Sequence record: OQ411014.1
Strand: one strand, 5' to 3'
DNA from: Escherichia phage EJP2
Length of the DNA: 64,000 nucleotides
A program made the position numbers and the translations under genes. Below the pieces are notes generated by a model. That model ran no database searches. It saw nothing but the letters and a program-made list of their open reading frames with translations, and was not told where the DNA came from. Each line of letters starts with the position of its first letter. The stretch's first letter is position 1. This document shows, one piece after another, positions 1 to 43,724 of the stretch.

Positions 1-57
1 GCACAGTACTGAAAAAGGCGTATAATGTTTTACATCGAGAGGGGGAATACTTCTCCC
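1..57 (+). promoter_or_regulatory. early promoter (5'-truncated by window; -10 TATAAT 21-26) plus leader hairpin 41-57
   Basis: Same cassette as 13 later copies; stem GGGGGAA/TTCTCCC with one G-U pair. Confidence 0.5.
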
Positions 58-78
58 TGGTACATTAAGGAATAAAAA

Positions 79-225
79 ATGAAAGCATCAAAAAAACGTA
101 ATACCAAGAAATCATCTTCAACGTTCGCAGGTGTATTCCCTTTGCGTTTTGTGGATGAAGTAGTTTCCTACCCGCCGGGTCTTACTCCTGAGATTGTAGA
201 AAGTTTGCGTAAATCTCAAAAATAG
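79..225 (+). CDS. small basic early protein (48 aa)
   Basis: ATG 79 after RBS AAGGAA; TAG 223-225; not in ORF track (<60 aa); read directly. Confidence 0.45.
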   Translation: MKASKKRNTKKSSSTFAGVFPLRFVDEVVSYPPGLTPEIVESLRKSQK

Positions 226-228
226 TAC

Positions 229-288
229 TTGCATAGTACTGAAAAAAGCGTATACTGTTTTACATAGGGGGAGAAACAACTTCCCCCA
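229..288 (+). promoter_or_regulatory. early promoter + leader hairpin
   Basis: -35 TTGCAT 229-234, 16-nt spacer, -10 TATACT 251-256; hairpin GGGGGAG..CTTCCCCC ~266-288. Confidence 0.6.
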
Positions 289-309
289 CTAATTAAGAGA
301 GAAATAAAA

Positions 310-603
310 ATGGCTAAGTATTGCAGAGAGTGCGGCGGTTTGTGTGTAGTTGATGTTTTCGGTATTTCTAACCACATTTACGAAAACGGCGAAATCCATT
401 ACGTGTTAGACGGTGATCATGTAGCTATTCCTGAGCATGAAGAAGTGTTGACAAATGAGGAAGTTTATGATTTTTGTTATGATTATTACACTGATCACGG
501 AGAGTACCCTATGGAGTGCGAATTGTCAAACGGTTATGTACTTTCTTTCGATGAAATCATGAAAGAACTAACCGAAGACCAAAAGAAAGAAATCGAAAAA
601 TAG
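310..603 (+). CDS. hypothetical early protein, Cys-containing (97 aa)
   Basis: ORF track; RBS AAGAGAGA upstream; promoter cassette upstream. Confidence 0.65.
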   Translation: MAKYCRECGGLCVVDVFGISNHIYENGEIHYVLDGDHVAIPEHEEVLTNEEVYDFCYDYYTDHGEYPMECELSNGYVLSFDEIMKELTEDQKKEIEK

Positions 604-606
604 TAC

Positions 607-669
607 TTGCATAGTACTGAAAAAAGCGTATACTGTTTTACATAGGGCGGGGGAATAGTTCTCCCGCCT
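607..669 (+). promoter_or_regulatory. early promoter + leader hairpin
   Basis: -35 TTGCAT 607-612, -10 TATACT 629-634; hairpin GGCGGGGGAA..TTCTCCCGCC. Confidence 0.6.
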
Positions 670-689
670 GGTTAAGAGGAAGTAAAAAA

Positions 690-947
690 ATGGAACAACA
701 TACTCAATATCGTTTTAATGAATACGCGTTCTCTTATGTTGAAGATCATAAAGAACTGCCTGTTAATACTCCTACCCGTGGTAAAGTATATCGCGGTTAT
801 TCCTGGAATCATAGCAAAGATGGTTACACTCATCAAGTAACCGCAATGTACATAGGGGATGGCAACTGGATCAATCCTGATAATCCTGAGTCAATCCAGG
901 ACGTGGAAGCAATGCAATGGTGCGATTATATTGAATGCGTACACTAA
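690..947 (+). CDS. hypothetical early protein (85 aa)
   Basis: ORF track; RBS AAGAGGAAG; promoter cassette upstream. Confidence 0.65.
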   Translation: MEQHTQYRFNEYAFSYVEDHKELPVNTPTRGKVYRGYSWNHSKDGYTHQVTAMYIGDGNWINPDNPESIQDVEAMQWCDYIECVH

Positions 948-956
948 AAAATTAGT

Positions 957-1017
957 TTGACAGTACTGAATAATAGCGTATAATGTTTTACATAGAGAGC
1001 GGGAATAGTTCCCGCCT
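957..1017 (+). promoter_or_regulatory. early promoter + leader hairpin
   Basis: -35 TTGACA 957-962, -10 TATAAT 979-984; hairpin GAGCGGGAA..TTCCCGCCTC. Confidence 0.6.
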
Positions 1018-1037
1018 CATATTAAGGAATTAAAAAA

Positions 1038-1295
1038 ATGAAAGTACAAATTAATGCAACCTCCTGGGTATTACGTCGTGATTCCGAACTGGTACAAGAT
1101 ACTCCTACTACCCGCCGCTTTTTCGATGATCATGGTGTTGTGTATGAGCAAAATAAAGATCAATTAGAATATCATGAATCTATGGCAGTGGTTGATATTC
1201 CTTGCGAGACTGTACAGGATATTCAACAGTACTGCAAGAAGTACAACGCAAAAATTGAAATCCAAAATGAAACGGCATTGATTAGTTTTTTCTAA
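1038..1295 (+). CDS. hypothetical early protein (85 aa)
   Basis: ORF track; RBS TAAGGAAT; promoter upstream. Confidence 0.65.
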   Translation: MKVQINATSWVLRRDSELVQDTPTTRRFFDDHGVVYEQNKDQLEYHESMAVVDIPCETVQDIQQYCKKYNAKIEIQNETALISFF

Positions 1296-1305
1296 TAAAA
1301 AGTAC

Positions 1306-1367
1306 TTGCAATTAGTTTCCAATAGCGTATAATGTTTTATATCGAGAGCGGGAATGGTTCCCGCCTC
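1306..1367 (+). promoter_or_regulatory. early promoter + leader hairpin
   Basis: -35 TTGCAA 1306-1311, -10 TATAAT 1328-1333; hairpin GAGCGGGAA..TTCCCGCCTC. Confidence 0.6.
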
Positions 1368-1386
1368 ATATTAAGGAATTAAAATC

Positions 1387-1743
1387 ATGACTATCTCTAT
1401 CGCTCAATCCAACTTTGAAAACGAAATCATCTCTACCGCCCTGCGTATGGATGACGGCATTGCTCGTATCAATTATGGTTTCAATTCAGGCGGTAATGAA
1501 GCGTATCAGTACTTTACAACTGCTGATGGCGGTGTCCTGGGTATCAATACCGTAATCGTTAATATTCAAAACATCAACTTCAATGATCCAGATGATAGCC
1601 AGTACTACATCACTGGCGTAGAAGTGAACTATGAAGATGATTCATTAACTGATGATCACACTGGCGAGACGTTAGAGAGTGCATACGCAGAAGAAGAAGA
1701 CGACGACCGCCAGGACTACTTCCCGAACGGTTTACAAGATTAA
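1387..1743 (+). CDS. hypothetical early protein, acidic C-terminus (118 aa)
   Basis: ORF track; RBS TAAGGAAT; promoter upstream. Confidence 0.65.
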   Translation: MTISIAQSNFENEIISTALRMDDGIARINYGFNSGGNEAYQYFTTADGGVLGINTVIVNIQNINFNDPDDSQYYITGVEVNYEDDSLTDDHTGETLESAYAEEEDDDRQDYFPNGLQD

Positions 1744-1748
1744 CATAG

Positions 1749-1774
1749 TGGGGGCAATAGCTCCCATTTTTTTA
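1749..1774 (+). terminator. rho-independent terminator
   Basis: Hairpin TGGGGGC..GCTCCCA followed by T7 tract. Confidence 0.55.
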
Positions 1775-1918
1775 TTCTCGTAGTACTGAATTATAGATAC
1801 AATCCCGCACCCTATGGGTTAGAGACTTTCTCGTCTTGATGTAGTAATTATACAGTACTGTAATACTATGTCAAGCGTTTAAAGTACATTTATTTTAAAA
1901 AGTATTTGTAGAAAGTAC

Positions 1919-1946
1919 TTGCACAGTACTGATAAAAGCGTATAAT
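1919..1946 (+). promoter_or_regulatory. early promoter
   Basis: -35 TTGCAC 1919-1924, -10 TATAAT 1941-1946; unusually long (~85 nt) leader before ATG 2050. Confidence 0.55.
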
Positions 1947-2049
1947 GTATTACATCAAGACGGGGAAGACAAGTAGACATCCTGTAAGTCGTACGAAAAC
2001 CAGGACACGGATTGATAAACCTAACTACTTTAATATAAGGAATACTATC

Positions 2050-2646
2050 ATGGCTAAAAATATTGTTACTCTGAAATCTGCTTTAGAATCTCATAACATC
2101 GAATCACTCGCGGCAAAACTCGCTGATATGGCTGACCGTGACGGGATCAAAAAGATGGGCTTAACGTTTTCCCTGGCTGTTAAACGTGCTCAAGATATTA
2201 GTAAGGAGCGTGCAGTACTGCAAGCCAAATTGAAAGAAGAAGCAGCAGAACGCCGCCGTCAATCTCTTATCAGTACTGTAGCAGCACGAAACGAAGCTCG
2301 CACCGCTGAGATGGAAAAGGAACTGCAAGCCCGTAAAGAAGAAGCTGAGGCGATGATCCAGAATATGATTGAGACTATGGGCTTTGATCTTGAAGTCGCC
2401 CAGGAGATGGTAAACGTCGCTATGCAGAAGAAATATAATGACAACAGCAAATCATTTACTTTCAACCGTACAGCAGTTCACTTCAACGGCAAAACATATA
2501 ACATGGGCGTAACTGGTAACATGCCGGACGTTCTCAAAGAAGCCGTAGCGAATTCTGGCCTGTCACGTGCAGACTTTATCAGAGAGTACGCCATTGATAA
2601 AGACGATGCGGAGCGTATCATTGCCCTTAAAAATGGTGTGAACTGA
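2050..2646 (+). CDS. hypothetical protein, predicted coiled-coil (198 aa)
   Basis: Internal ATG 2050 with RBS AAGGAAT preferred; listed ORF start 1945 lies inside the -10 box. Confidence 0.6.
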   Translation: MAKNIVTLKSALESHNIESLAAKLADMADRDGIKKMGLTFSLAVKRAQDISKERAVLQAKLKEEAAERRRQSLISTVAARNEARTAEMEKELQARKEEAEAMIQNMIETMGFDLEVAQEMVNVAMQKKYNDNSKSFTFNRTAVHFNGKTYNMGVTGNMPDVLKEAVANSGLSRADFIREYAIDKDDAERIIALKNGVN

Positions 2647-2846
2647 TGCAAGTCCTAAGCTCAATCATCGCCCCAGGTAGTGCAAAGCGTATCACTACCA
2701 ACAAGGGATTGCATACAGTGATTCAAACCGATTGGATAGCTGTAATGATTGATTCTATCAGTACTGAATTGTATATGTATCACAGTACTGAGGGGAATAG
2801 ATTTGTAATACACAAAGGTAAAAATTATTTGGTTGATGTACTATAA
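2646..2846 (+). CDS. hypothetical protein (66 aa)
   Basis: ORF track; ATGA start/stop overlap with upstream gene. Confidence 0.45.
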   Translation: MQVLSSIIAPGSAKRITTNKGLHTVIQTDWIAVMIDSISTELYMYHSTEGNRFVIHKGKNYLVDVL

Positions 2847-2851
2847 ACTAC

Positions 2852-2911
2852 TTGCCAGTACTAAAGAATAGTGTATAATGTTTTACATAGAGCGGGGGAA
2901 CAGTTCTCCCG
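2852..2911 (+). promoter_or_regulatory. early promoter + leader hairpin
   Basis: -35 TTGCCA 2852-2857, -10 TATAAT 2874-2879; hairpin GCGGGGGAA..TTCTCCCGC. Confidence 0.55.
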
Positions 2912-2931
2912 CAGTTTAAAGGAAACAAAAC

Positions 2932-3120
2932 ATGTTACAACTGTCCGAAGTACTGGTTAAAGATCAATGGGGCAATCCTGGTAGTAATATCATTGTACGC
3001 GATAATAAAGCAACGTTTATCACTAATGAAGGGGCGTTGACACGTAGCATAAAGAATAAAGCCGTTACTATCAACAACGTTCGCTATCGTCTCGATTCTC
3101 ACCTTGTAACAGTACTGTAA
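2932..3120 (+). CDS. hypothetical early protein (62 aa)
   Basis: ORF track; RBS AAAGGAAAC. Confidence 0.6.
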   Translation: MLQLSEVLVKDQWGNPGSNIIVRDNKATFITNEGALTRSIKNKAVTINNVRYRLDSHLVTVL

Positions 3121-3131
3121 GGAGTATTACA

Positions 3132-3308
3132 ATGATTCACGTAGAATTAAGCACTATTAAAGAACTATTCTATAAACTCGGTCAGGCGGGGGAGTACCCT
3201 ACTAATGACACCGCCCGTTTGTTTAACTCCTTAGACAACTGGCAAAAAGGCGAACTATCTGAAGCCTGGAGACAAGGAAAGGAAGATCAAAAAGCACTTG
3301 CAAAGTAA
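3132..3308 (+). CDS. hypothetical small protein (58 aa)
   Basis: ATG 3132 after RBS AAGGAG; TAA 3306-3308; not in ORF track; read directly. Confidence 0.4.
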   Translation: MIHVELSTIKELFYKLGQAGEYPTNDTARLFNSLDNWQKGELSEAWRQGKEDQKALAK

Positions 3309-3362
3309 TCTGATTAATGTATAATGTTTTGCATAGGGGGAAACAACTTCCCCCACTAATTA
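3299..3362 (+). promoter_or_regulatory. early promoter + leader hairpin
   Basis: -35 TTGCAA 3299-3304, -10 TATAAT 3320-3325; hairpin GGGGGAAAC..TTCCCCC; overlaps 3' end of upstream small ORF. Confidence 0.55.
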
Positions 3363-3373
3363 AGGAATAAAAA

Positions 3374-3661
3374 ATGAAAGCTCAAGCCAAATACTTTGAA
3401 AACGTTTTTGATGGTCGTGATGCAGAATGTACCCGCCTGATCGCTGGTGGACTGGTTAAAGGTGCGGTAGTACTGGCAACGGACTTAAACAAAGTAAACA
3501 AGAATAATCCATTCCGTGAATTGTGTAAAGAGATGGAAACGATCACAGTACTGGAATCTCCTTTCAACGATAAGCGTACTGGTATTCCGTCAATGGTCGT
3601 GTACCATAAAGAAACTAATCAACAACGTTTGGTTAGTGCCAGGAACTGGATTGCAATGTAA
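3374..3661 (+). CDS. hypothetical early protein (95 aa)
   Basis: ORF track; RBS TAAGGAAT. Confidence 0.65.
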   Translation: MKAQAKYFENVFDGRDAECTRLIAGGLVKGAVVLATDLNKVNKNNPFRELCKEMETITVLESPFNDKRTGIPSMVVYHKETNQQRLVSARNWIAM

Positions 3662-3668
3662 AAAAGTA

Positions 3669-3730
3669 CTTGCATTGTAATCTGATTAATGTATAATGTT
3701 TTGCATAGGGGGAAACATCTTCCCCCACTA
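3669..3730 (+). promoter_or_regulatory. early promoter + leader hairpin
   Basis: -35 TTGCAT 3669-3674, -10 TATAAT 3691-3696; hairpin GGGGGAAAC..TTCCCCC. Confidence 0.6.
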
Positions 3731-3745
3731 ATTAAGGAAAGTAAA

Positions 3746-3904
3746 ATGAATAATTCAGCACAGTATCAACCAACGGAAAACATCGTAATCGGTAACGGCC
3801 TGGGTATGCATCGATTCAGTACTAACCAATCATACACTGAAAGAGCATTACGGGCTATGTGTATCAGTGCAAAACAGATTGCAATGTACTTCAAAAAGAA
3901 ATAA
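3746..3904 (+). CDS. hypothetical small protein (52 aa)
   Basis: Internal ATG 3746 after RBS TAAGGAAAG; listed ORF start 3689 lies inside the promoter. Confidence 0.5.
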   Translation: MNNSAQYQPTENIVIGNGLGMHRFSTNQSYTERALRAMCISAKQIAMYFKKK

Positions 3905-3950
3905 GAAAATAGGGGTTGACTTAGGTTAGCCCCTTTGGTATTATGTATTC

Positions 3951-4045
3951 ATTGAAACAACATAGCCCACAGGGTGCAGAGAAGTAAGTGTTTAATAATT
4001 AATTTCCGTGAGTAACTATCTGTCCAGCCAGGGGTGAACTATTTT
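3951..4045 (+). ncRNA. candidate small RNA, copy 1 of a paralogous pair (promoter -35 TTGACT 3916-3921, -10 TATTAT 3939-3944)
   Basis: No ORF; 33-nt block GAAACAACATAGCCCACAGGGTGCAGAGAAGTA and CGTGAGTAACTATCTG shared with copy at 7482-7590. Confidence 0.35.
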
Positions 4046-4125
4046 ATAATTACTATTGACATAATCAAATCAGTACTGTAATCTATACATATATTAACGC
4101 AATACCTAACCTAAAGGGCAAGACC

Positions 4126-4269
4126 ATGAACAATGAGAACGTATACAACAAAGTGCAATCTAAAATCAATTCTGAGCTAACCATCGCCCAACTTGACTTG
4201 ATTGACGAAATGTTATTCTCAAACCGTTCTTTGAAAGATATCATCAAAGCAGTAAAGGCGGCAGCATGA
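4126..4269 (+). CDS. hypothetical small protein (47 aa)
   Basis: ATG 4126, TGA 4267-4269, ATGA overlap with next gene; read directly. Confidence 0.4.
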   Translation: MNNENVYNKVQSKINSELTIAQLDLIDEMLFSNRSLKDIIKAVKAAA

Positions 4270-4583
4270 AAAAGTTATTACTGTCTTTATTACTGGTTAG
4301 TACTTCCTCGATGGCTGAGAATAACATTACTAAAGCTCTCAAGGAAGATCCCTGGCCTGTTTACAAGTGCACTCTGTTAGTAAATGATAAGGAAGTACTG
4401 ACCACTACTAACAAGGAAGAATATAAATCCTATTCAATGCACCCGCGAAACATGCACGTTTATACTTATCCCATCAGTGAAGCGGCGGCCTTTCGCCTGG
4501 TGGTGTCAGATAATCAAGCCACTGGCATCATGTATCACAACAACGAGATAGTAAGCACATATAGCGGAACGTGCACTAAGTAA
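4266..4583 (+). CDS. putative secreted protein with N-terminal signal peptide (105 aa)
   Basis: N-terminus MKKLLLSLLLVSTSSMA is signal-peptide-like; ORF track. Confidence 0.6.
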   Translation: MKKLLLSLLLVSTSSMAENNITKALKEDPWPVYKCTLLVNDKEVLTTTNKEEYKSYSMHPRNMHVYTYPISEAAAFRLVVSDNQATGIMYHNNEIVSTYSGTCTK

Positions 4584-4588
4584 ATGTA

Positions 4589-4614
4589 AAGCCTCCAATG
4601 TTGGGGGCTTTTTT
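4589..4614 (+). terminator. rho-independent terminator
   Basis: Hairpin AAGCCTCCAA..TTGGGGGCTT followed by TTTTTT. Confidence 0.65.
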
Positions 4615-4666
4615 GTATGTATATCAGTACTATAAAAGTATTTTTAAAATACTTTGCAAAAAGTAC

Positions 4667-4730
4667 TTGCACTGTACTGATAAAAGCGTATAATGTTTTA
4701 CATCGAGAGGGGGAAACGGTTCAACCTCAG
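4667..4730 (+). promoter_or_regulatory. early promoter + leader hairpin
   Basis: -35 TTGCAC 4667-4672, -10 TATAAT 4689-4694; imperfect leader hairpin. Confidence 0.55.
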
Positions 4731-4747
4731 AAATTAAGGAAAACAAC

Positions 4748-4858
4748 ATGAAAGCTCAAGCGACCCTGAATAGTACTATCAAAGCTAACAAAATCAATCG
4801 TCTTTACCTTGGTCTGGCTGTTGTCCTGGTAATCGCATTAAGCCTGAATATCGGTTAA
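4748..4858 (+). CDS. small hydrophobic peptide, predicted single TM helix (36 aa)
   Basis: ATG 4748 after RBS TAAGGAAA; TAA 4856-4858; read directly. Confidence 0.35.
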   Translation: MKAQATLNSTIKANKINRLYLGLAVVLVIALSLNIG

Positions 4859-4879
4859 TAAAAAACTTTCGCAGTACTG

Positions 4880-4907
4880 TTGACAACCTCTCCAGTACTG
4901 CTATAAT
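4880..4907 (+). promoter_or_regulatory. sigma70-like promoter
   Basis: -35 TTGACA 4880-4885, 16-nt spacer, -10 TATAAT 4902-4907. Confidence 0.55.
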
Positions 4908-4943
4908 AAATGTACTTTCAAAACATATTAAGGAATTAAAATC

Positions 4944-5276
4944 ATGACTACTTCTAACATCGAAATCATCAACACCGTAGCAATCGAAACTGTTCTGTCC
5001 TTTGATGTTCAAGCAAAACGCTGGACCGATACTTATGGCAATACTTACTTCTCTGTTGTAGTATCGGCAGAACAAGAAAAAGAATATGTAGAACTTGGTG
5101 CGGTTAGTTTCGCGTACGGTTACGATGAAGCATACGCCTACAAAGCAGTTGAAATCATCAAGGAAACCGTAACAGGTATTACATCAGAAGAGTCATCCCT
5201 GTGGCGTTTAATGGATGACCTTAAGTTATCTTGTAACACTAAAGCGACTAATGTCAAGCGTAAAAAAGATTTGTAA
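4944..5276 (+). CDS. hypothetical protein (110 aa)
   Basis: ORF track; RBS TAAGGAAT. Confidence 0.65.
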   Translation: MTTSNIEIINTVAIETVLSFDVQAKRWTDTYGNTYFSVVVSAEQEKEYVELGAVSFAYGYDEAYAYKAVEIIKETVTGITSEESSLWRLMDDLKLSCNTKATNVKRKKDL

Positions 5277-5357
5277 TTGACTTGATTTATTGTGCTGGTG
5301 GTCCTATACTATCAGCACGCATTAAAACTAATTAAACAAACCGAAGGATATACCCAG

Positions 5358-5654
5358 ATGATCAAATATTTCAATACTCGTACCGAAGCCCGTGCTTTTG
5401 CTGCTGCTAACAACACCAAGGTAATTGATAACACCACCGCAGCGGAAAAGGGTAAACGCTGGGAAGTCCAAGTGATGGACGCGATGGACAAGGTAAACGA
5501 AGTACTAGAAATGGTTCAAGAAGAAGTCCCAGACCTCAAACCATTACCAGTACTGAAAGCTCCTGCGGTCATCGTACGCAACCATAAAGAGTACAAGAAA
5601 GATCGCAAAGGTAACACCGTCACAGTATACAGCAAACGTAAACAAGTACTATAA
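5358..5654 (+). CDS. hypothetical protein (98 aa)
   Basis: Internal ATG 5358 with RBS GAAGGA preferred over listed start 5292. Confidence 0.5.
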   Translation: MIKYFNTRTEARAFAAANNTKVIDNTTAAEKGKRWEVQVMDAMDKVNEVLEMVQEEVPDLKPLPVLKAPAVIVRNHKEYKKDRKGNTVTVYSKRKQVL

Positions 5655-5700
5655 CGAAAACTGGGGGGAGGATATCCCCCACTATTAAAGGAATGTAATC

Positions 5701-5940
5701 ATGGCAGCTAAAAAACCATTAGTGTATCATTCAGTTATTATTAATAACAAACGTTACAAAATGTCCGAAGGTCTAGCACAGGTAACTAATGTTCAATTGA
5801 TCTTGGACAAGTTAACCCCAGAAGAGGCCCAGATGACGGTAATACAAGCTAAGAAGATGCGTCCAGGGTATTCAAATCATCCAGTTATATCCATGCTGTT
5901 AAACCTTATCATAGTTGGAGCAAGTAAGAAGATATGCTAA
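5701..5940 (+). CDS. hypothetical protein (79 aa)
   Basis: ORF track; RBS AAAGGAAT; hairpin GGGGGGAGGATATCCCCCC upstream. Confidence 0.55.
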   Translation: MAAKKPLVYHSVIINNKRYKMSEGLAQVTNVQLILDKLTPEEAQMTVIQAKKMRPGYSNHPVISMLLNLIIVGASKKIC

Positions 5941-6104
5941 ACGTCTACCAGGAAACAGTAAAGACATTAAAGGGGTTGAATGCATCACGTGATGTTATCT
6001 ATTTTGTTTCACAAAACGCCTTTGAGTTGCAATCTATGCACGACACAGGAAAGACATTAGAGGAAATAGTACAGTACTGCGTAGATGAGGCTAACAAGCA
6101 TTAA
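5934..6104 (+). CDS. hypothetical small protein (56 aa)
   Basis: ATG 5934 overlapping upstream stop; TAA 6102-6104; read directly. Confidence 0.35.
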   Translation: MLNVYQETVKTLKGLNASRDVIYFVSQNAFELQSMHDTGKTLEEIVQYCVDEANKH

Positions 6105-6202
6105 AACGCTGCTGGTGGTGTGGTAGTACTATAAAGTGAATAACCTCGTTAGAGAGCGTTACAGGACGTTTTAGAGTACTATAAAAATATATCAAAAAGA
6201 TG

Positions 6203-6265
6203 TAGACATTAGAACTTAATAGCGTATAATGTTTTACATCGAGAGGGGGAATACTTCTTCCTCAG
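6203..6265 (+). promoter_or_regulatory. early promoter + leader hairpin
   Basis: -35 TAGACA 6203-6208, -10 TATAAT 6225-6230; hairpin AGGGGGAATACTTCTTCCTC. Confidence 0.5.
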
Positions 6266-6284
6266 TATTAAAAAGGTTTATAAC

Positions 6285-6512
6285 ATGACTACTCTTAACG
6301 CACTTCAAATCAGTACTGCCGCTAAAACTCTGGGCGAAATCATGCAAGCTCAATATGTTGTTACTCGTTTTAGTACTAAAGAATGCATTATGATGGTTTC
6401 TAAAGATAGCACCGCGAAACTGGTAATCGAGAATGGTATTGCGAAAGTATATTCTACGCGTGACAATACTGTGCAAAATACTGTTCAAGTACTTGTTGAC
6501 ATCGAAGCATAA
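6285..6512 (+). CDS. hypothetical early protein (75 aa)
   Basis: ORF track; promoter cassette upstream. Confidence 0.6.
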   Translation: MTTLNALQISTAAKTLGEIMQAQYVVTRFSTKECIMMVSKDSTAKLVIENGIAKVYSTRDNTVQNTVQVLVDIEA

Positions 6513-6560
6513 CAGTACTATAATCTCTTTTATCAACTACACGGAATAGGAAACATCATC

Positions 6561-7154
6561 ATGCGTTTTTACAATAAATTTTTACGTTCTCTGGATGGCC
6601 TGACTAATGACCAAATGATCCAGGCGTGCAAAGATGCAGGCTTAGAGATGGTAGGGCGTGGTTCTTCGCGTGTAGTGTATGCTATCAATGACAAGCTCGT
6701 TATTAAGATCGCATTAAACAGTGTAGGCATTACTCAGAACAAAAATGAAACAAAGATCCATTTTTGTATTAAAAACGAATTCATCGGCCTGTCAAAGTAC
6801 TTTGCACGTGTTTACCCTAACCTGGCTGACCGCAAAGATATTACATTAGTAATGGAACGAGTAGAAACCAAGTTTAAAGGCCGTATTAAGTATTCTACCG
6901 CGTTAACTGTCGTTCGCTTTTCTCCTGCCAGGGCGAAAGTATGTGATATTCATAAGGCCGCTTTAAAGCACTTACAGGCGGTTAGTACTCTGGACGAGTA
7001 TATGAATACTTGCAACGCTACCGACCTGCACGCAAAGAATATAGGCATTAACGACAAAGGACAAGTAAAGATCCTCGATTATGGTTTTAGTCCTGTACTG
7101 CGTAACAAGTATTTTCACGGTCGCATAAAAAATAAAAAAGAAGTACTTGCATAG
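6561..7154 (+). CDS. putative protein kinase-like protein (197 aa)
   Basis: Gly-rich loop GRGSSRVVY, VIKI lysine strand, catalytic-loop-like DLHAKNIGIN and DFG-like KILDYGF; by eye only. Confidence 0.5.
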   Translation: MRFYNKFLRSLDGLTNDQMIQACKDAGLEMVGRGSSRVVYAINDKLVIKIALNSVGITQNKNETKIHFCIKNEFIGLSKYFARVYPNLADRKDITLVMERVETKFKGRIKYSTALTVVRFSPARAKVCDIHKAALKHLQAVSTLDEYMNTCNATDLHAKNIGINDKGQVKILDYGFSPVLRNKYFHGRIKNKKEVLA

Positions 7155-7210
7155 TACTGAGATTCGCGTATAATGTTTTATATCGAGAGGGGGAATACTT
7201 CTCCCTCAGT
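7147..7210 (+). promoter_or_regulatory. early promoter + leader hairpin
   Basis: -35 TTGCAT 7147-7152, -10 TATAAT 7169-7174; hairpin GAGGGGGAATACTTCTCCCTC. Confidence 0.6.
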
Positions 7211-7226
7211 TAAGGAGTAAAACATT

Positions 7227-7427
7227 ATGTCTATTGCTATCGCACTGGTTGAAGTACTGAAAGAAGCTAAAGCCAACCTTATCGATGTACAGATTAAGGA
7301 ATTGCAAAATGGCTTAATCGGCTGCACTTGTAGTACTGGTTGCGGTTCTGATTATAGAGAATTCGAATCATTAGAATCATTGGTTCGTTATCTTACAATC
7401 ATAGTGGACGATTGGAAACTAATCTAA
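7227..7427 (+). CDS. hypothetical Cys-rich small protein (66 aa)
   Basis: ORF track; RBS TAAGGAGT; motif GCTCSTGCG. Confidence 0.6.
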   Translation: MSIAIALVEVLKEAKANLIDVQIKELQNGLIGCTCSTGCGSDYREFESLESLVRYLTIIVDDWKLI

Positions 7428-7481
7428 AAAAATATTAAAAAAGGAGTTGACTTCGGTTAGCTCCTTTAGTACTATATACGC

Positions 7482-7590
7482 ATCGAAACAATATAGCCCA
7501 CAGGGTGCAGAGAAGTATCTATAAGATAGTTAATAACGGTGAGTAACTATCTGCTGGTGGAAGTACTACCTGTACGCCAGGGAGTGAAAT
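7482..7590 (+). ncRNA. candidate small RNA, copy 2 of paralogous pair (promoter -35 TTGACT 7446-7451, -10 TACTAT 7470-7475)
   Basis: No ORF; shares conserved blocks with 3951-4045 (one mismatch in 33 nt). Confidence 0.35.
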
Positions 7591-7652
7591 ATATTTGCAA
7601 AACAATATCAGTACTGATATACTGCAAGCCTTAACTAATGAGGAATACTATC

Positions 7653-7925
7653 ATGGCTTATAACGATATGATGAAGGCACAACACTACAACTTAAAGCGT
7701 ACAGACAAAGCACCGAAACCACGTTGGACAATGAAAAAGAAAGCTCAGACTATCTTTGAAGAGGAAACAGTACTGCAAGCTATTGAACAAATCAAAGTAA
7801 ACAAAAAGTTAGTTCAAAAAGTATCTAATGTTATTTGTTCTACTCTCTTCAAGGACTACTCCAAGGAGTACCAGGAGAAGATCAAGAGTATTGCACAAGA
7901 AATAAGAATACAAAAACTTTATTAA
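7653..7925 (+). CDS. hypothetical basic protein (90 aa)
   Basis: ATG 7653 with RBS GAGGAA preferred over listed 7638. Confidence 0.6.
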   Translation: MAYNDMMKAQHYNLKRTDKAPKPRWTMKKKAQTIFEEETVLQAIEQIKVNKKLVQKVSNVICSTLFKDYSKEYQEKIKSIAQEIRIQKLY

Positions 7926-7930
7926 AGTAC

Positions 7931-7995
7931 TTGCATAGTACTGAAAAAAGCGTATACTGTTTTACATAGAGCGGGGGAATAGTTCTCCCGCATAG
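7931..7995 (+). promoter_or_regulatory. early promoter + leader hairpin
   Basis: -35 TTGCAT 7931-7936, -10 TATACT 7953-7958; hairpin GCGGGGGAA..TTCTCCCGC. Confidence 0.6.
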
Positions 7996-8011
7996 TTTAA
8001 GGAGTTCCACC

Positions 8012-8344
8012 ATGTCTACATCAATCGCTATCGTTAATGCTTCCATTCGTACCAATCATTCATCTGTATGTATTGGTGGCCTCGACCGTAAAGTGGAATA
8101 CTCTTTCATCATTGCCGAGACTATCAACGGTGCACGCTATATCTTAAATGATAGTGAAGCAAATCATTACTACGTTGCGAAAGATACTGGCTTTAAACGT
8201 ATCCCTGCCGATGTAGTATACGCAAAGATGAATAAGCTGGTAGACCGTATCAACGCGAAAGGTACTATAGATTTACTGTACTGGACTGAAACTACTCCGG
8301 CTTATGGTTCTCATCGTTACCTGAATCCAGGTATTAAAATGTAA
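8012..8344 (+). CDS. hypothetical early protein (110 aa)
   Basis: ORF track; RBS TAAGGAGT. Confidence 0.65.
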   Translation: MSTSIAIVNASIRTNHSSVCIGGLDRKVEYSFIIAETINGARYILNDSEANHYYVAKDTGFKRIPADVVYAKMNKLVDRINAKGTIDLLYWTETTPAYGSHRYLNPGIKM

Positions 8345-8351
8345 AAAGTAC

Positions 8352-8415
8352 TTGCATAGTACTGCGATTCAGGTATAATGTTTTACATAGAGCGGGGGAA
8401 TGGTTCTCCCGCCTA
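8352..8415 (+). promoter_or_regulatory. early promoter + leader hairpin
   Basis: -35 TTGCAT 8352-8357, -10 TATAAT 8374-8379; hairpin GCGGGGGAA..TTCTCCCGCC. Confidence 0.6.
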
Positions 8416-8433
8416 CTTTAAGGAGTACTGATT

Positions 8434-8832
8434 ATGTTCACTATCAATTCTTATGCTGATGTTCTGGTCCTGGCTAAAACTTTCGGCAACGCTGCCCTGG
8501 ATTATGCTTTACAAAATGGTACTATCCAACCGGAACAATGCCGCCTCATTGGTAGCTGTAAACGTTGGGCGGTGTCCAATACTATTGCACTGGAAAACTT
8601 CAACGATGGCAACAATGAATATTCTGTTGATGCAGTATTCGAAGCCGTTGATCTCGGCGGTATCTATAACACTAACCTGAATGATGTGCGTATCGTTCGC
8701 ACTGGGTTCGGTGCTTATGATTTATCTATCCGTGAAGCTATGGACACCGGATACATTAGCAAAGATGTACTGGCTCACATCATGCAGTTGTGTGTGGAAC
8801 GTAACGAAGCACGTACTATCTTAGGGCTGTAA
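8434..8832 (+). CDS. hypothetical early protein (132 aa)
   Basis: ORF track; RBS AAGGAGT. Confidence 0.65.
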   Translation: MFTINSYADVLVLAKTFGNAALDYALQNGTIQPEQCRLIGSCKRWAVSNTIALENFNDGNNEYSVDAVFEAVDLGGIYNTNLNDVRIVRTGFGAYDLSIREAMDTGYISKDVLAHIMQLCVERNEARTILGL

Positions 8833-16810: not shown

Positions 16811-17179
16811 ATGTTAGATCATGATTTTCGGTTGCACACACATATAGTCCAGGGTGTATATCATTTTTATTGTAACGTACATAAAGGTGATACCAGTCAT
16901 AGAAGGCACGTATATATTTCTTATCTTAATGGTGCGTTTTCGTTCATTAGTTATGAGAATTATAAGTACGGTTCTCGGACAGATCATCCTATGCAGGATT
17001 ATACAGTACTGGATGAGGGTGGGAGATTTCAGGCAGAATTAGTGCTTGATGCAAATTCTGTTCTTACATTAGATGAGATTATTTTCATTCAGAATCTAAT
17101 GAAAGAGTTCTCGGTGCGTGCACAAAATTCTGAAGAATTTGAACACGATTACTATTTCAATATAGGAATTCCATCATGA
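16811..17179 (+). CDS. FQ-motif paralog, 120-aa subfamily copy 1
   Basis: Motif EGGRFQAELV; ATG 16811 preferred over GTG 16802; GC-rich leader upstream. Confidence 0.6.
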   Translation: MLDHDFRLHTHIVQGVYHFYCNVHKGDTSHRRHVYISYLNGAFSFISYENYKYGSRTDHPMQDYTVLDEGGRFQAELVLDANSVLTLDEIIFIQNLMKEFSVRAQNSEEFEHDYYFNIGIPS

Positions 17180-17535
17180 CATATGATTTTTTCTTACATG
17201 CTTACAAAGGAAAAGGTATCTATCAGTACTATTGCAATGTCAATAAAAATGACATAAAATATAATCTGAACGAATTCATCTTTTACGTACAAGGTGTGTT
17301 TAAGTTTGTGGACTACAGTAAGGATATTCAACATGATAGAAGTGATATGTTAGATTATTCAGTACTGAATGAAGCTGAACTCTTCCAAGCAGAAGTAGCT
17401 TATAATTTGGAGTACATTCTTCCATTGCACGAAATTGCTGCTATCCAGAGAACAATAAAAGAGTTTGCCAGTACTGTAAATGTATCAGATGACACTAAAA
17501 AAGAGTACTATTTCAATATAGGAATTCCATCATGA
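17176..17535 (+). CDS. FQ-motif paralog, 120-aa subfamily copy 2
   Basis: Motif EAELFQAEVAYN; N-terminus MTYDFFLHA; ATGA overlap. Confidence 0.7.
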   Translation: MTYDFFLHAYKGKGIYQYYCNVNKNDIKYNLNEFIFYVQGVFKFVDYSKDIQHDRSDMLDYSVLNEAELFQAEVAYNLEYILPLHEIAAIQRTIKEFASTVNVSDDTKKEYYFNIGIPS

Positions 17536-17888
17536 CATATGATTTTTTCTTACACGCTCATAAACACAAAGGTTTTTATCAGTACTATTGTAATGTTCAT
17601 AAAAATGATACCATGCACAGTATGGACCATTATATCAATTACTCAGAAGGGAAGTTTCAATTTCTGGACTACGGTATTGTATCTAAACCATATCGTGATA
17701 TGATAGATTATTCAGTACTGACAGAGGCTGAACTATTCCAAGCAGAAGTAGCTTATAACAGTGAGTACATTCTTACGTTGGATGAAGTTGTTGCTATCCA
17801 GACTATAATGAAAGAATATGTCCAGAATGTACCTGATCCAGCGGAAACAAATGATCAGTACTTTTTCAATATAGGGAATCCAGAATGA
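17532..17888 (+). CDS. FQ-motif paralog, 120-aa subfamily copy 3
   Basis: Motif EAELFQAEVAYN; junction DNA identical to previous copy. Confidence 0.7.
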   Translation: MTYDFFLHAHKHKGFYQYYCNVHKNDTMHSMDHYINYSEGKFQFLDYGIVSKPYRDMIDYSVLTEAELFQAEVAYNSEYILTLDEVVAIQTIMKEYVQNVPDPAETNDQYFFNIGNPE

Positions 17889-18253
17889 CAGAGAATAGTT
17901 TTGATTTTTCATTGTTCGTATCAGTGTATGAAGAAATATATTGCAATCTCATCAAAGGTGATATTGAGCATAACAAGTCAACATTCATCAAGTACAAAAA
18001 ATCTACATCTACATCTGCATTTACATTTAGATTTGTAGATTACGATAATAATCAAAGAATGCAACCTATACAGGATTATACAGTACTGAATGAGGCTGAA
18101 AGATTTCAGGCAGCGTTGGTATATGAAGAAAAGTATCTCGTTACTATGGATGAAATGATTGCTATCCAACAAGAAATAAAAAATCACGTAAAAGAGTACG
18201 GTATGAGTTCAGTACTGGGTAAGAGATTACATTTCAATATAGATAAGGAATAA
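17885..18253 (+). CDS. FQ-motif paralog, 120-aa subfamily copy 4
   Basis: Motif EAERFQAALVY. Confidence 0.7.
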   Translation: MTENSFDFSLFVSVYEEIYCNLIKGDIEHNKSTFIKYKKSTSTSAFTFRFVDYDNNQRMQPIQDYTVLNEAERFQAALVYEEKYLVTMDEMIAIQQEIKNHVKEYGMSSVLGKRLHFNIDKE

Positions 18254-21258: not shown

Positions 21259-21287
21259 TTGACGGGTGTTGTGCTTTCGGGTACAAT
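21259..21287 (+). promoter_or_regulatory. sigma70-like promoter with palindromic spacer (operator-like)
   Basis: -35 TTGACG, 17 nt, -10 TACAAT; inverted repeat CGGGTGTTGT..ACAATACCCG spans -35 to -10. Confidence 0.5.
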
Positions 21288-21320
21288 ACCCGTTATTCGT
21301 TTATAGAGAGGAATAAAATC

Positions 21321-21944: not shown

Positions 21945-22521
21945 TAAGTTAGGGGTATTGATTGATATCCTACATCGTTCAATACTGAAGTCTAAGGGGT
22001 ATATAATCTTAGGACACTCTAAAGTACTGGATAAACGAATTGCTTTTCGTTATAGTAAAGTTCTAAATGACATAACTGTAGTGGCTGAAGATGTTGATCC
22101 AGATGATAGTTCTCTGGTACTGTCTAGGATTAAACTCATTGGTATTCCTATTGACAACAACACTGCTAGTTATCGTGGGATATATGCAACCGACCGCTTC
22201 ATCTCGTGGAGATCTCAAGAACAAAGTTGTGATGAATTCTACCACAGGAGTACTGATGAGTTCATGACTATGTATCCCAAGAGTGAAGTACTGAAGATTA
22301 TGACTGACACAGATTATGCGGAGTGTCATAAGTTCAGTGCTTTGTTGCAGATGGATGAACTCCTTTATATACAGCGTGTAGTACTGTCATGGTTAGGGTC
22401 TAAAGATAGAAACGAAGGATACGTCATCGCTGACAATTCCATTCTCAACGAAGATGTAGTTCAAGAGATAATTGGTCTATTTGATAAAGAACTGGAGAAG
22501 TACGATGAATATAACAAATGA
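21934..22521 (+). CDS. hypothetical protein (195 aa)
   Basis: ORF track; 11-nt overlap ATGTTATGTAA. Confidence 0.6.
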   Translation: MLCNKLGVLIDILHRSILKSKGYIILGHSKVLDKRIAFRYSKVLNDITVVAEDVDPDDSSLVLSRIKLIGIPIDNNTASYRGIYATDRFISWRSQEQSCDEFYHRSTDEFMTMYPKSEVLKIMTDTDYAECHKFSALLQMDELLYIQRVVLSWLGSKDRNEGYVIADNSILNEDVVQEIIGLFDKELEKYDEYNK

Positions 22522-27065: not shown

Positions 27066-27094
27066 TTGACAAGCATTGTATCTTCGGGTACAAT
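27066..27094 (+). promoter_or_regulatory. sigma70-like promoter with palindromic spacer (operator-like)
   Basis: -35 TTGACA, 17 nt, -10 TACAAT; perfect inverted repeat AAGCATTGTA..TACAATGCTT. Confidence 0.55.
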
Positions 27095-27117
27095 GCTTTT
27101 TTTATAGGAGAAATACT

Positions 27118-29529: not shown

Positions 29530-29558
29530 TTGACAAGTGTTGTATCTTAGGGTACAAT
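29530..29558 (+). promoter_or_regulatory. sigma70-like promoter with palindromic spacer (operator-like)
   Basis: -35 TTGACA, 17 nt, -10 TACAAT; near-identical to 27066 promoter. Confidence 0.55.
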
Positions 29559-29592
29559 GCTTTTAATTAATAATTAACGAGGATTTCTTATA

Positions 29593-32447: not shown

Positions 32448-32593
32448 TGAAAAAGAAAAGCCAAACTAATGTACCGGATGTTCGTAACTTCGTACACAAA
32501 CATATGGAAACATTCAGTAAAGCACAGACATTCGTTGACCGTAAAAAAGACCAACGCAATGGCAAAAGAAAACATAAAGGGCAAGACTGGTAA
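32447..32593 (+). CDS. possible small basic protein (48 aa)
   Basis: GTG start overlapping upstream stop; Lys/Arg-rich; stop sits in terminator-like hairpin; speculative. Confidence 0.25.
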   Translation: MKKKSQTNVPDVRNFVHKHMETFSKAQTFVDRKKDQRNGKRKHKGQDW

Positions 32594-32608
32594 GTCTGCC
32601 CTCTTTAA
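32578..32608 (+). terminator. putative terminator hairpin
   Basis: AGGGCAAGACT-GGTA-AGTCTGCCCT with weak U-tract. Confidence 0.4.
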
Positions 32609-32627
32609 TTAACAACGTGAGGTTATC

Positions 32628-33524
32628 ATGTTTCTGAATTTCAAAGAGTACAGCCTTAAAGAATACATTGAAATGTTCAGGGCGTTCTTTAAAGACCAAA
32701 GTACAGTACTGCCCTTTGAATACTCAATTGATCGGGATTATGCCAGGACTCTTGGGTATATTATCATGCACGTAGGTGGCATGACGTTCTTGACTATTAA
32801 AGATAATGGTCAGTTCTACGTTACTGAAGATGATAATATAACTTATAGTTACAATCCGAGTAAAAATTCTGAAAAAATCGTTACTCCACGTATAGACGTC
32901 AATAAGTTCATTTGTCCTAAGACTCTAAAATCAGAAATCACTCACAAAGTTATAGTACTGAAGAATCGTACGCACGCTAATACCGGAAACTCTATAACTG
33001 TAATGGTCAAAGACAAATACGATTATACACGTTCAGCATATAAAAATAGTCCAATAAGTAATAAGTACAGTAGTGGAGTACATAAAACATTATGTATTGC
33101 ATCTAGAATGACTATTTCTGAATACTACGATGAAAGCGAAAGTACATGCATCCAAAGTTCTATTAATATTTGGAGTGATACTCTAGCGAATTGTTATAGT
33201 ATAACATTACATGAAAATCAAGGAAAATCTGTTGGTAAGATCGGTATGAGTACTTTGCATCCAAAAAACACCAGTCGCTTTACTATTGCAGATGATATTG
33301 TACAGTCTTTGCCTGATTTATCTTTGAGTCATCTCTTTAGTAATGAAGAAATTTATTTCAAATTACTATTGACACTAGAGCCTGAAGCGTGTAGACTATT
33401 CGAATTGATTCATACTGAAAGTATTGCACTTCTGAATGAAACAATAAATGACTGTACTCCATCGGAACGGAGTCCAGTACTGAGAGATGTAATAAGAAAC
33501 TTATCTATCAAGGAAGAGGGATAA
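32628..33524 (+). CDS. hypothetical protein (298 aa)
   Basis: ORF track; RBS GTGAGGT. Confidence 0.65.
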   Translation: MFLNFKEYSLKEYIEMFRAFFKDQSTVLPFEYSIDRDYARTLGYIIMHVGGMTFLTIKDNGQFYVTEDDNITYSYNPSKNSEKIVTPRIDVNKFICPKTLKSEITHKVIVLKNRTHANTGNSITVMVKDKYDYTRSAYKNSPISNKYSSGVHKTLCIASRMTISEYYDESESTCIQSSINIWSDTLANCYSITLHENQGKSVGKIGMSTLHPKNTSRFTIADDIVQSLPDLSLSHLFSNEEIYFKLLLTLEPEACRLFELIHTESIALLNETINDCTPSERSPVLRDVIRNLSIKEEG

Positions 33525-43520: not shown

Positions 43521-43724
43521 ATGAAATATTCATTGATTCGTTTAGGATTATTTGTTACAGTAGTCTTAATGGTTGTGATTGGTTCAGTACTGACACAGTT
43601 ATACCCTGCGTTTATTTTACTCGCTGGGATTTTTGGTTCAGTACTGATTGGGCTGGTGGGTTGGGCTTTGCAGCTTACCATCGATGCGGAATTAGAAAAG
43701 AGGATTAAAGATAAAGATGAATGA
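43521..43724 (+). CDS. small membrane protein, two predicted TM helices (67 aa)
   Basis: ATG 43521 after RBS AGGAGGAAAAG; listed ORF begins at GTG 43494. Confidence 0.55.
   Translation: MKYSLIRLGLFVTVVLMVVIGSVLTQLYPAFILLAGIFGSVLIGLVGWALQLTIDAELEKRIKDKDE

Follow-up and report, generated by a model that had tools for sequence, protein, structure and literature searches.

Two look-alike intergenic elements near the start of the Escherichia phage EJP2 sequence (OQ411014.1) raise the question of what is made from DNA that carries strong promoter signals and no recognizable gene. The 64,000-nt stretch analyzed here (the window, to which all motif coordinates refer) had been given a first-pass annotation, which took the pair for paralogous non-coding elements, each driven by its own promoter and each a candidate small RNA. 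The kinship of the two is real. A repeat finder reports them as a 128-nt direct repeat (3895-4022 and 7426-7553, 81% identity, family D8), and they have in common a 33-nt block GAAACAAYATAGCCCACAGGGTGCAGAGAAGTA (3954-3986 and 7485-7517; no match in 100 shuffles), a 15-nt block GTGAGTAACTATCTG (4008-4022 and 7539-7553) and a hairpin/-35 block GTTGACTTNGGTTAGC (3915-3930 and 7446-7461), the last two occurring exactly twice. Nor does either region hold an open reading frame (ORF) beyond TTG- or GTG-initiated ones of 20 to 31 amino acids, which are not common to both copies. Our answer, to which we give about an even chance in its full form with the roles proposed for its parts, is that the elements are copies of a clade-specific promoter-plus-leader cassette of the RaK2/121Q-like enterobacterial jumbo phages. 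The RNA motif at its core, a structured 5′ leader or small-RNA module, is previously undescribed in Rfam, in the literature searched and in genome annotations. The literature search returned no prior description of it, no transcriptome of a RaK2-like enterobacterial phage, and nothing on early gene control of RaK2/121Q-like phages beyond promoter predictions; the CBB genome paper describes RpoD-like promoters with UP elements and no leader motif, and the genome annotations at motif sites give only “terminator,” “stem_loop,” or -35/-10 signals.

By sequence similarity the window belongs to the RaK2/121Q-like jumbo phages of enterobacteria, its closest matches being the Asteriusvirus phages 121Q, PBECO4, and slurp01, at only ~84%; its first 9 kb make up a typical early region, with numerous small plus-strand genes and numerous repeated promoters. 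BLAST with either reported element finds 60 to 74 phage records, with 2 to 8 places per genome, often within the direct terminal repeats, and what is conserved is the promoter plus the first 45 to 50 transcribed bases. The bare RNA motif was found by BLAST in just 56 of 50,697 phage records, all of them enterobacterial jumbo phages of 310 to 386 kb, infecting Escherichia, Klebsiella, Salmonella, Erwinia, Yersinia, Pectobacterium, Cronobacter, and Serratia. A profile scan followed by a covariance model, applied to the window and to loci from nine related phages, with stretches of 121Q, Yersinia phage fHe-Yen9-03, CBB, RaK2, GAP32, Munch, fENko-Kae01, and Hallingskeid among them, collected 62 copies; since these are related by duplication and descent, the cell counts given below are not counts of independent events. 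Exactly 3 lie in the window, even with filters off: 7467-7532 and 3936-4001 on the plus strand, which are the reported pair, and 1783-1846 on the minus strand, which the first-pass annotation had missed along with the second promoter before each next gene and the occurrence in other genomes. The motif was not found in E. coli genomes by similarity search, nor in the PA5oct and Serratia BF stretches examined with the covariance model, and pattern scans of IMG/VR and metagenomes gave only 121Q and one K64-1-like contig, adding no diversity. Rfam 15 has no match at gathering score across the whole window and none on any motif copy at E<=5 (region 1700-7700); a tRNA/tmRNA scan of the window was likewise empty. 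A sub-threshold Rfam match, to Phe_leader at 4582-4704 (minus strand; E=0.007, with 34 bits where the gathering score is 55), was dismissed as probably spurious, since it overlaps the next promoter as well as the strong terminator of 4588-4611.

The anatomy of the module can be set out with considerable confidence. It consists of the 45 to 50 conserved nucleotides that begin at about +2 of the predicted transcript, and is made up of a first stem-loop (SL1), a UAR linker, a second stem-loop (SL2), and a tail. SL1 has a 4-bp stem whose sequence varies in a compensating manner and an A-rich loop of 6 to 8 nt (AGAUAA, AGAACAA, GAGAAA, GCGAAA). Because the first covariance-model alignment misregisters SL1 in some rows (57% paired), we scored it with a separate fixed-geometry script, requiring a 4-bp stem, a 6- to 8-nt loop, and a 3- to 5-nt linker, against chimeric controls. 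A perfect stem is present in 37 of 60 copies, whereas the 500 control trials averaged 8.3 and reached 15 at most, and it is built from 16 distinct stem sequences. In twelve copies, among them the reported pair and two from 121Q, SL1 has no more than 2 pairs; its place is there occupied by CAU(N)GAAACAA, which is the usual first transcribed sequence of motif-free early promoters too. The GAAACAA portion of the 33-nt block is a general start of the clade’s early transcripts.

SL2 has the form R-CCC-N3-GGG-U, with 98% of cells paired; 29 copies have A-U and 27 have G-U as the outer pair, and there is one double compensatory change (CCU/AGG). Its 3′ arm runs into an invariant GGGUGC, which is followed by the tail RGAR.UGUAUCUAU. 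The same GGGUGC can pair instead with the tail to form a third helix (SL3), for which 88% of cells are paired, as against 31 to 54% when the partner is slid by 1 to 3 columns; variation in the SL3 tail is almost entirely of the type G-U to G-C or U-A to U-G. SL2 and SL3 are mutually exclusive and of comparable stability (a mean of -3.6 kcal/mol for SL2, about -5 for SL3 with the canonical tail). The consensus has G-U at three positions of SL3, and only the sense RNA can therefore form the helix, which speaks against a reading at the level of DNA. Together with the 62 copies tied to promoters and the 16 compensating stems, these sense-only wobbles uphold the first-pass contention in so far as the conserved blocks are under selection as RNA and are not spacer DNA. 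Several additions to this picture were entertained and discarded. A pseudoknot between the SL1 loop and the tail was rejected on inspection, since loops and tails do not covary, and mutual information among the tail columns gave no further helix. A CsrA-type GGA loop or RegB-type GGAG site fails in that roughly half of the copies have no GGA or GGAG, the reported pair among them. A DnaA box, an ops element, and CRISPR-repeat mimicry were set aside informally because the critical bases are not conserved.

The tie to promoters is strict. All 61 distinct motif copies lie 20 to 29 nt downstream of a sigma-70-type -10 box, the distance from -10 to SL2 falling into 2 groups of 20 to 22 and 26 to 29 nt. 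The -35 box is TTGACA or TTGACT in 42 of the 61, 41 have a 17-bp spacer, and most have TATTAT, TATACT, or TATAAT as the -10 box. For 39 of the 61, the -35 box sits inside a hairpin of at least 6 bp that is followed by a T run and lies just past the stop codon of an upstream gene. The outer stems of these hairpins vary (GGGG/CCCC, GGAG/CTCC, AGTAC/GTACT, AGAGG/CCTCT, and others) while TTGAC is kept, and the loop is often the very stable cUUCGg. For the reported pair, the first-pass observation of a sigma70-like promoter embedded in a hairpin stands: the promoter scan finds a promoter at both, a terminator-like call covers 3911-3934, and a compensatory change, from G-C to A-T, separates the hairpin stems of copies 1 and 2 (GGGG/CCCC and GGAG/CTCC). 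These -35 hairpins have the makings of intrinsic terminators, with a GC-rich stem-loop and a T/U run just past the stop codons at 3904 and 7427, and it looks as though one hairpin would act both as terminator of the upstream unit and as carrier of the next promoter. The U runs behind them are short, 3 U followed by a mixed run. A different kind of terminator/promoter overlap is seen at 21259-21293, 27066-27100, and 29530-29564, where the promoter is TTGACA-17-TACAAT and it is the spacer and -10 box that form the hairpin (AAGCATTGTA/TACAATGCTT), with a T run, a Shine-Dalgarno sequence, and an ATG behind it.

What becomes of the transcript downstream of the module depends on the copy. About 40 copies, both reported ones included, have a second promoter 50 to 100 nt past SL2 and a gene at +105 to +230, and the terminator/context scan found no terminator between motif and second promoter in any of them. 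The second promoters read TTGCAA, TTGCAT, or TTGACA followed by a TATAAT-like box, often with AGTACT within or adjacent to them; AGTAC is in general enriched 30 to 39 nt past the start of SL2, in leader-type and terminated copies alike. The reported copies each have their own promoter and no conserved ORF, as a small-RNA gene should, but lack the intrinsic terminator, and, because they run on into a second promoter (about 100 nt past SL2) and then a gene, we read them as messenger leaders and not as small RNAs. The proposal of free-standing small RNAs at these 2 loci is therefore not sustained; the conserved blocks would appear to fall in the 5′ untranslated region of the downstream mRNA, which is the outcome that the first-pass annotation itself had named as contrary to its proposal.

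Copy 1, on the plus strand, has the promoter TTGACT-17-TATTAT at 3916-3944 by promoter scan, with the -35 box at 3916-3921, the -10 box at 3939-3944 beyond a 17-bp spacer, and a predicted transcription start at A3951. The -35 box lies inside the hairpin AGGGGTTGAC-TTAG-GTTAGCCCCT (3911-3934), called as terminator-like by the terminator scan, which begins 7 nt past the stop codon of the ORF at 3689-3904 and is flanked by an A-rich tract upstream and a T-rich one downstream. The leader RNA (3951-3986; covariance-model match 3936-4001, 49.3 bits, E=1e-7) opens with the A-rich AUUGAAACAACAUAG, a degenerate SL1 with 2 of 4 stem pairs in the fixed-geometry test, and goes on to SL2, G-CCC-ACA-GGG-U at 3965-3975; it also contains UGCAGAGAAGUA. 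An SL3 tail is missing, and the energy computed for SL3 is +2.9 kcal/mol. The block GTGAGTAACTATCTG at 4008-4022, common to copy 2 and 121Q, is without a pairing partner in copy 1, and because this block was kept while its partner and the SL3 tail were lost, copy 1 looks like a decayed or diverged paralogue. Its second promoter, TTGACA-17-TAATCT at 4056-4084 (+), is a possible and weak one, read from the sequence and below the cut-off of the consensus scan; it has AGTACTG in the spacer and precedes a Shine-Dalgarno sequence and the ATG at 4126.

For copy 2, also on the plus strand, the promoter scan gives TTGACT-17-TACTAT at 7447-7475 (-35 box at 7447-7452, -10 box at 7470-7475, predicted start A7482), and the -35 box is again inside a terminator-like hairpin, AAAGGAGTTGAC-TTCG-GTTAGCTCCTTT at 7440-7467, which has the cUUCGg loop and begins 13 nt past the stop codon of the ORF at 7227-7427. 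In the leader RNA (7482-7522; covariance-model match 7467-7532, 63.8 bits, E=4e-11) a degenerate SL1 (AUCGAAACAAUAUAG) is followed by SL2 at 7496-7506; the invariant GGGUGC at 7503-7508 has the alternative partner GUAUCU at 7515-7520, giving SL3, and minimum-free-energy folding of the 33-nt core selects SL3. Beyond it comes a 9-bp hairpin, AGATAGTTA-N11-TAACTATCT at 7524-7552 (+), which is lineage specific, being found only here and in the 121Q orthologue, and whose 3′ arm is the second shared block GTGAGTAACTATCTG. This block, then, is present in both reported copies as the first-pass annotation had it, but is confined to the window and 121Q-like phages and is not a family-wide feature. Directly 3′ of the hairpin is a Chi site, GCTGGTGG at 7553-7560 (+), which is kept in 121Q; the orthologue there, at position 153831, is near-identical from SL2 to the Chi site, with diverged flanks. 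The second promoter, TTGCAA-17-TATACT at 7595-7623 (+), carries the palindrome CAGTACTG in its spacer and has a Shine-Dalgarno sequence and a gene behind it (ATG 7653, ORF to 7925).

The third copy stands in contrast to both, and it is here that the small-RNA idea, not supported at the 2 reported loci, does fit. Its promoter on the minus strand, TTGACA-16-TATAAT at 1874-1847, matches consensus at 12 of 12 positions in the promoter scan, with a predicted start at about 1840. The motif that follows (1840-1795; covariance-model match 1783-1846, 53 bits) is canonical: SL1 is AGAC-GAGAAA-GUCU (1836-1823), the linker CUAA, SL2 CCC-AUA-GGG (1818-1810), and SL3 GGGUGCG/UGUAUCU (1812-1806 with 1801-1795). 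The 3′ part (1794-1740, minus strand; z = -2.3) comprises UUCAGUACU, an A run, and the hairpin UGGGAGC-UAUU-GCCCCCA (1766-1749), which the plus-strand gene 1387-1743 also has in its terminator. Promoter, motif, and terminator thus delimit a predicted RNA of ~100 nt within 1874-1740 (-). Terminated copies of this kind occupy intergenic gaps, opposite to the orientation of the genes, with a strong hairpin and U run 46 to 51 nt past SL2. Orthologues of copy 3 in slurp01, phAPEC6, K64-1, Munch, and RaK2 keep the promoter, the module, the invariant UUCAGUACU, the A run, and a terminator with compensating stem changes; the terminated version is kept in at least 4 lineages, with compensating changes in both SL1 and the terminator stem. 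We regard 1874-1740 (-) as a credible, indeed probable, small-RNA gene that is conserved across genera.

How might such a module work? The 2 reported copies would form the 5′ leaders of mRNAs of the immediate-early class, transcribed from the first of two promoters in tandem, and the module would act as a 5′-terminal tag. Hairpins of the ompA type at the 5′ end of a message block 5′-end-dependent attack by RNase E/RppH. In full-length copies SL1 is like them in lying near the predicted 5′ end and in being free in sequence so long as pairing is kept, and an intact SL1, 2 to 3 nt from the predicted end, has the geometry of a hairpin that would guard against such decay; judged from predicted starts, this geometry would be present where the -10 box is 26 to 29 nt from SL2, window copy 3 included. 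Unlike a simple 5′ protector, the motif adds the invariant GGGUGC and a conserved tail. We suppose that the SL2/SL3 region may be a binding or switching site for a trans-acting factor (RNA polymerase itself, or a protein of phage or host) that would set the fate of immediate-early RNA. Terminated copies such as 1874-1740 (-) would yield a stable RNA of ~100 nt with the same tag, possibly a decoy or regulatory RNA. Among the mechanisms considered we take this combination of tag and protector as the most likely, while holding it less likely than not.

Several observations weigh against this interpretation. The transcription starts, as well as the ends and the stability of the RNAs, are predictions. 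A real SL1 is lacking in both reported copies (1 to 2 of 4 stem pairs at fixed geometry), so the argument from a protective hairpin fits poorly in exactly those 2 copies, and copy 1 lacks the SL3 tail as well. SL3 is almost without two-sided covariation, because its 5′ arm is invariant, and its evidence is accordingly one-sided; SL2 has just the one double change. The structure prediction with covariation that had been proposed as a check on the elements is positive for SL1 with its 16 compensating stems, but, folded as single sequences, the 2 reported leaders do not outdo their shuffled counterparts (z = +0.8 and -1.3). The searches for complementarity in the window and for similarity in E. 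coli genomes brought to light neither a binding factor nor an RNA target. Moreover, promoter and leader may be copied as one unit, which would couple them without any function that depends on the 5′ end.

Two of the alternatives also give the RNA a part to play. In the one we regard as the main rival, although an unlikely one, the module is a processive antitermination or anti-pausing leader, acting on RNA polymerase as a nascent two-hairpin RNA in the manner of the put sites of phage HK022, or with a protein in the manner of nut. Put RNA suppresses terminators without the help of other factors, by way of the zinc-binding domain of β′. The likeness to put is appreciable: putL begins at +2/+3 of its transcript (PMC9378689) and the module, as predicted, 2 to 3 nt into strong early sigma-70 transcripts, both are promoter-proximal with 2 adjacent stem-loops in early transcripts of the host sigma-70 RNA polymerase, both exist in more than one copy per genome, and the location just downstream of early sigma-70 promoters holds for all 61 motif copies. 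The early region is rich in terminator-like hairpins that an antiterminator might have to pass, e.g., the promoter hairpins and, downstream of copy 1, the one at 4588-4611; and, by eye, many tails contain a -10-like hexamer (TATAAT, TATAGT, TATTAT), a possible site for the sigma-dependent pause that has been proposed for putL. But put RNA is ~70 nt, its 2 stem-loops having long bulged stems and a triplex (PMC9378689), whereas the motif is 45 to 50 nt, has stems of 3 to 5 bp and a two-state GGGUGC segment, and is present in at least 10 copies per genome, some of them before strong terminators. The covariance model, run over the whole HK022 genome with filters off, gave one match (32576-32650, E=9.4), not at the put sites. 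The lambda nut sites are similar in having short hairpins with purine-rich loops in an early leader beside a conserved single-stranded segment. Their boxB has a 5-bp stem and a 5-nt GNRA-like loop, SL1 a 4-bp stem and a loop of 6 to 8 A-rich nucleotides, which in some copies contains a G-N-R-N-A core; and a boxA-like core (CGCTCTTA or GCTCTTTA, with up to 1 mismatch) was found in only 1 of 60 copies, and in that one downstream of the motif. An antiterminator would also make little sense in the terminated copies, which have nothing coding behind a strong terminator 46 to 51 nt past SL2. Rather less probable still is that each reported locus yields a short stable RNA, ended by a weak terminator or by processing, that acts in trans by base-pairing or by titrating a protein. 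The same 5′ module does occur in promoter-motif-terminator units of ~100 nt that are conserved across genera, one of them in the window, and the AGTAC word enriched past SL2 might be the sign of a 3′ boundary or processing site that both types have in common. From the early/terminal-repeat region of the related phage PA5oct come 2 abundant ORF-less RNAs, ncRNA001 and ncRNA002 (PMC7318152). These are longer, however (236 and 451 nt, at 8263-8498 and 21951-22401), and do not match the motif; the clade may share a habit of making non-coding RNA from the terminal repeat while using unrelated sequences for it. The layout of a terminator-bounded small RNA is exactly that of 1874-1740 (-) and its orthologues, and not that of the reported copies and the ~40 similar ones, where no terminator hairpin with U run precedes the second promoter. 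The folds are not unusually stable, and the antisense targets that the first-pass annotation had envisaged did not materialize, with no complementary target in the window and nothing similar in E. coli genomes.

Two further explanations were weighed. The conserved sequence could be an element in DNA, either a downstream promoter element or an operator or roadblock, whose apparent hairpins are palindromic protein sites, and its strictly fixed position relative to the promoter, the invariance of GGGTGC whatever the context, and the genome-abundant palindrome AGTACT in neighboring promoter spacers and just past the motif would all suit such a role. Yet a sequence-specific DNA site should not allow 16 versions of the SL1 stem with complementarity kept, and the G-U pairs in SL3, in half of the SL2 outer pairs, and in SL1 (UGGC/GCCG) would turn into A-C mismatches if read from the opposite strand, or in the duplex; we consider a DNA-level element very improbable. 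To a leader mini-ORF we give the least credence of all. The tail often reads NUG-UAU-CUA-stop (M-Y-L-stop), which could be a minigene for a 3-codon peptide: of 60 copies, 59 open it with A, G, or U, 50 have U next, and 36 then have G, UAU CUA and UAA or UAG are common after that, and GGGUG 5 nt upstream might be a weak Shine-Dalgarno sequence. However, both reported copies have AAG there and hence no start codon, the start codon is missing in ~40% of copies, the reading length is not conserved, and stop codons are frequent by chance in AT-rich DNA.

RaK2/121Q-like jumbo phages are widely isolated and include candidates for therapy, and for these phages what were 2 anonymous repeats can now be described as a defined RNA motif, supported by covariation and known from over 60 examples, with a clear promoter context and 2 alternative helices that can be tested; the analysis also points to a conserved small-RNA gene carrying the same module. 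The coordinates and the covariance model are concrete handles for experiments. Should RNA polymerase prove to be the target of the module, or a phage protein its reader, the module would represent a new class of regulatory RNA. In its fullest form, which we offer as a speculation and think rather unlikely as a whole, this would be a two-state (SL2/SL3) 5′ tag on the immediate-early transcripts of RaK2-like jumbo phages, whose reader would be either the elongating RNA polymerase, independently of other factors and unlike put in sequence, or a dedicated phage RNA-binding protein that times the shut-off or stabilization of early RNA, with the ~100-nt minus-strand RNA as decoy or regulator.

A second promoter family, commoner than the one that bears the motif, has 12 copies in window positions 1-8430 (e.g., 600-681, 7140-7221, 7924-8005, and 8345-8426; families D1/D2). 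Its layout is AGTACTTGCA..AGTACTG..TATAAT, then ACAU(A/C)GAG, a GC-rich variable 5′ hairpin, a Shine-Dalgarno sequence, and a gene start, and it provides many of the second promoters behind the motif in relatives such as 121Q and CBB. Its -35 box (TTGCA/TTGCTT) may resemble the MotA box of T4 middle promoters. The palindrome CAGTACTG is present in the spacers of many early promoters and is far from confined to them: the 8-bp form occurs 107 times in the 64 kb, against 0.7 expected (e.g., 1856-1863, 4072-4079, and 7610-7617), and AGTACT 301 times, against 21 expected. Both are evenly distributed along the window, with ~90% of copies within genes and every reading frame used. In relatives, some motif-bearing promoters form convergent, face-to-face pairs 70 to 90 bp apart near the start of the terminal repeat (in the stretches numbered L004, 978-1107 and 3788-3917; L005, 1884-2036; L006, 3759-3888; L008, 2374-2513; L009, 1249-1388). 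In such an arrangement each transcript would enter the antisense of the other’s motif, and a perfect duplex of at least 16 bp would form.

The Chi site behind copy 2 is one of 4 clustered within 4.1 kb of the early region (3443, 5294, 6111, and 7553, all on the plus strand and co-oriented with transcription), where 0.3 would be expected in the whole window; others lie at 43652 (+) and 39576 (-). Early or terminal-repeat regions of 121Q, fHe-Yen9-03, CBB, RaK2, GAP32, Munch, fENko-Kae01, and Hallingskeid have 4 to 9 co-oriented Chi sites each, and the clustering may serve protection from RecBCD at the genome end. Lastly, the window contains at 16985-18181 a set of 3 to 4 tandem units of ~355 bp with 60 to 76% identity, probably a run of paralogous small genes.

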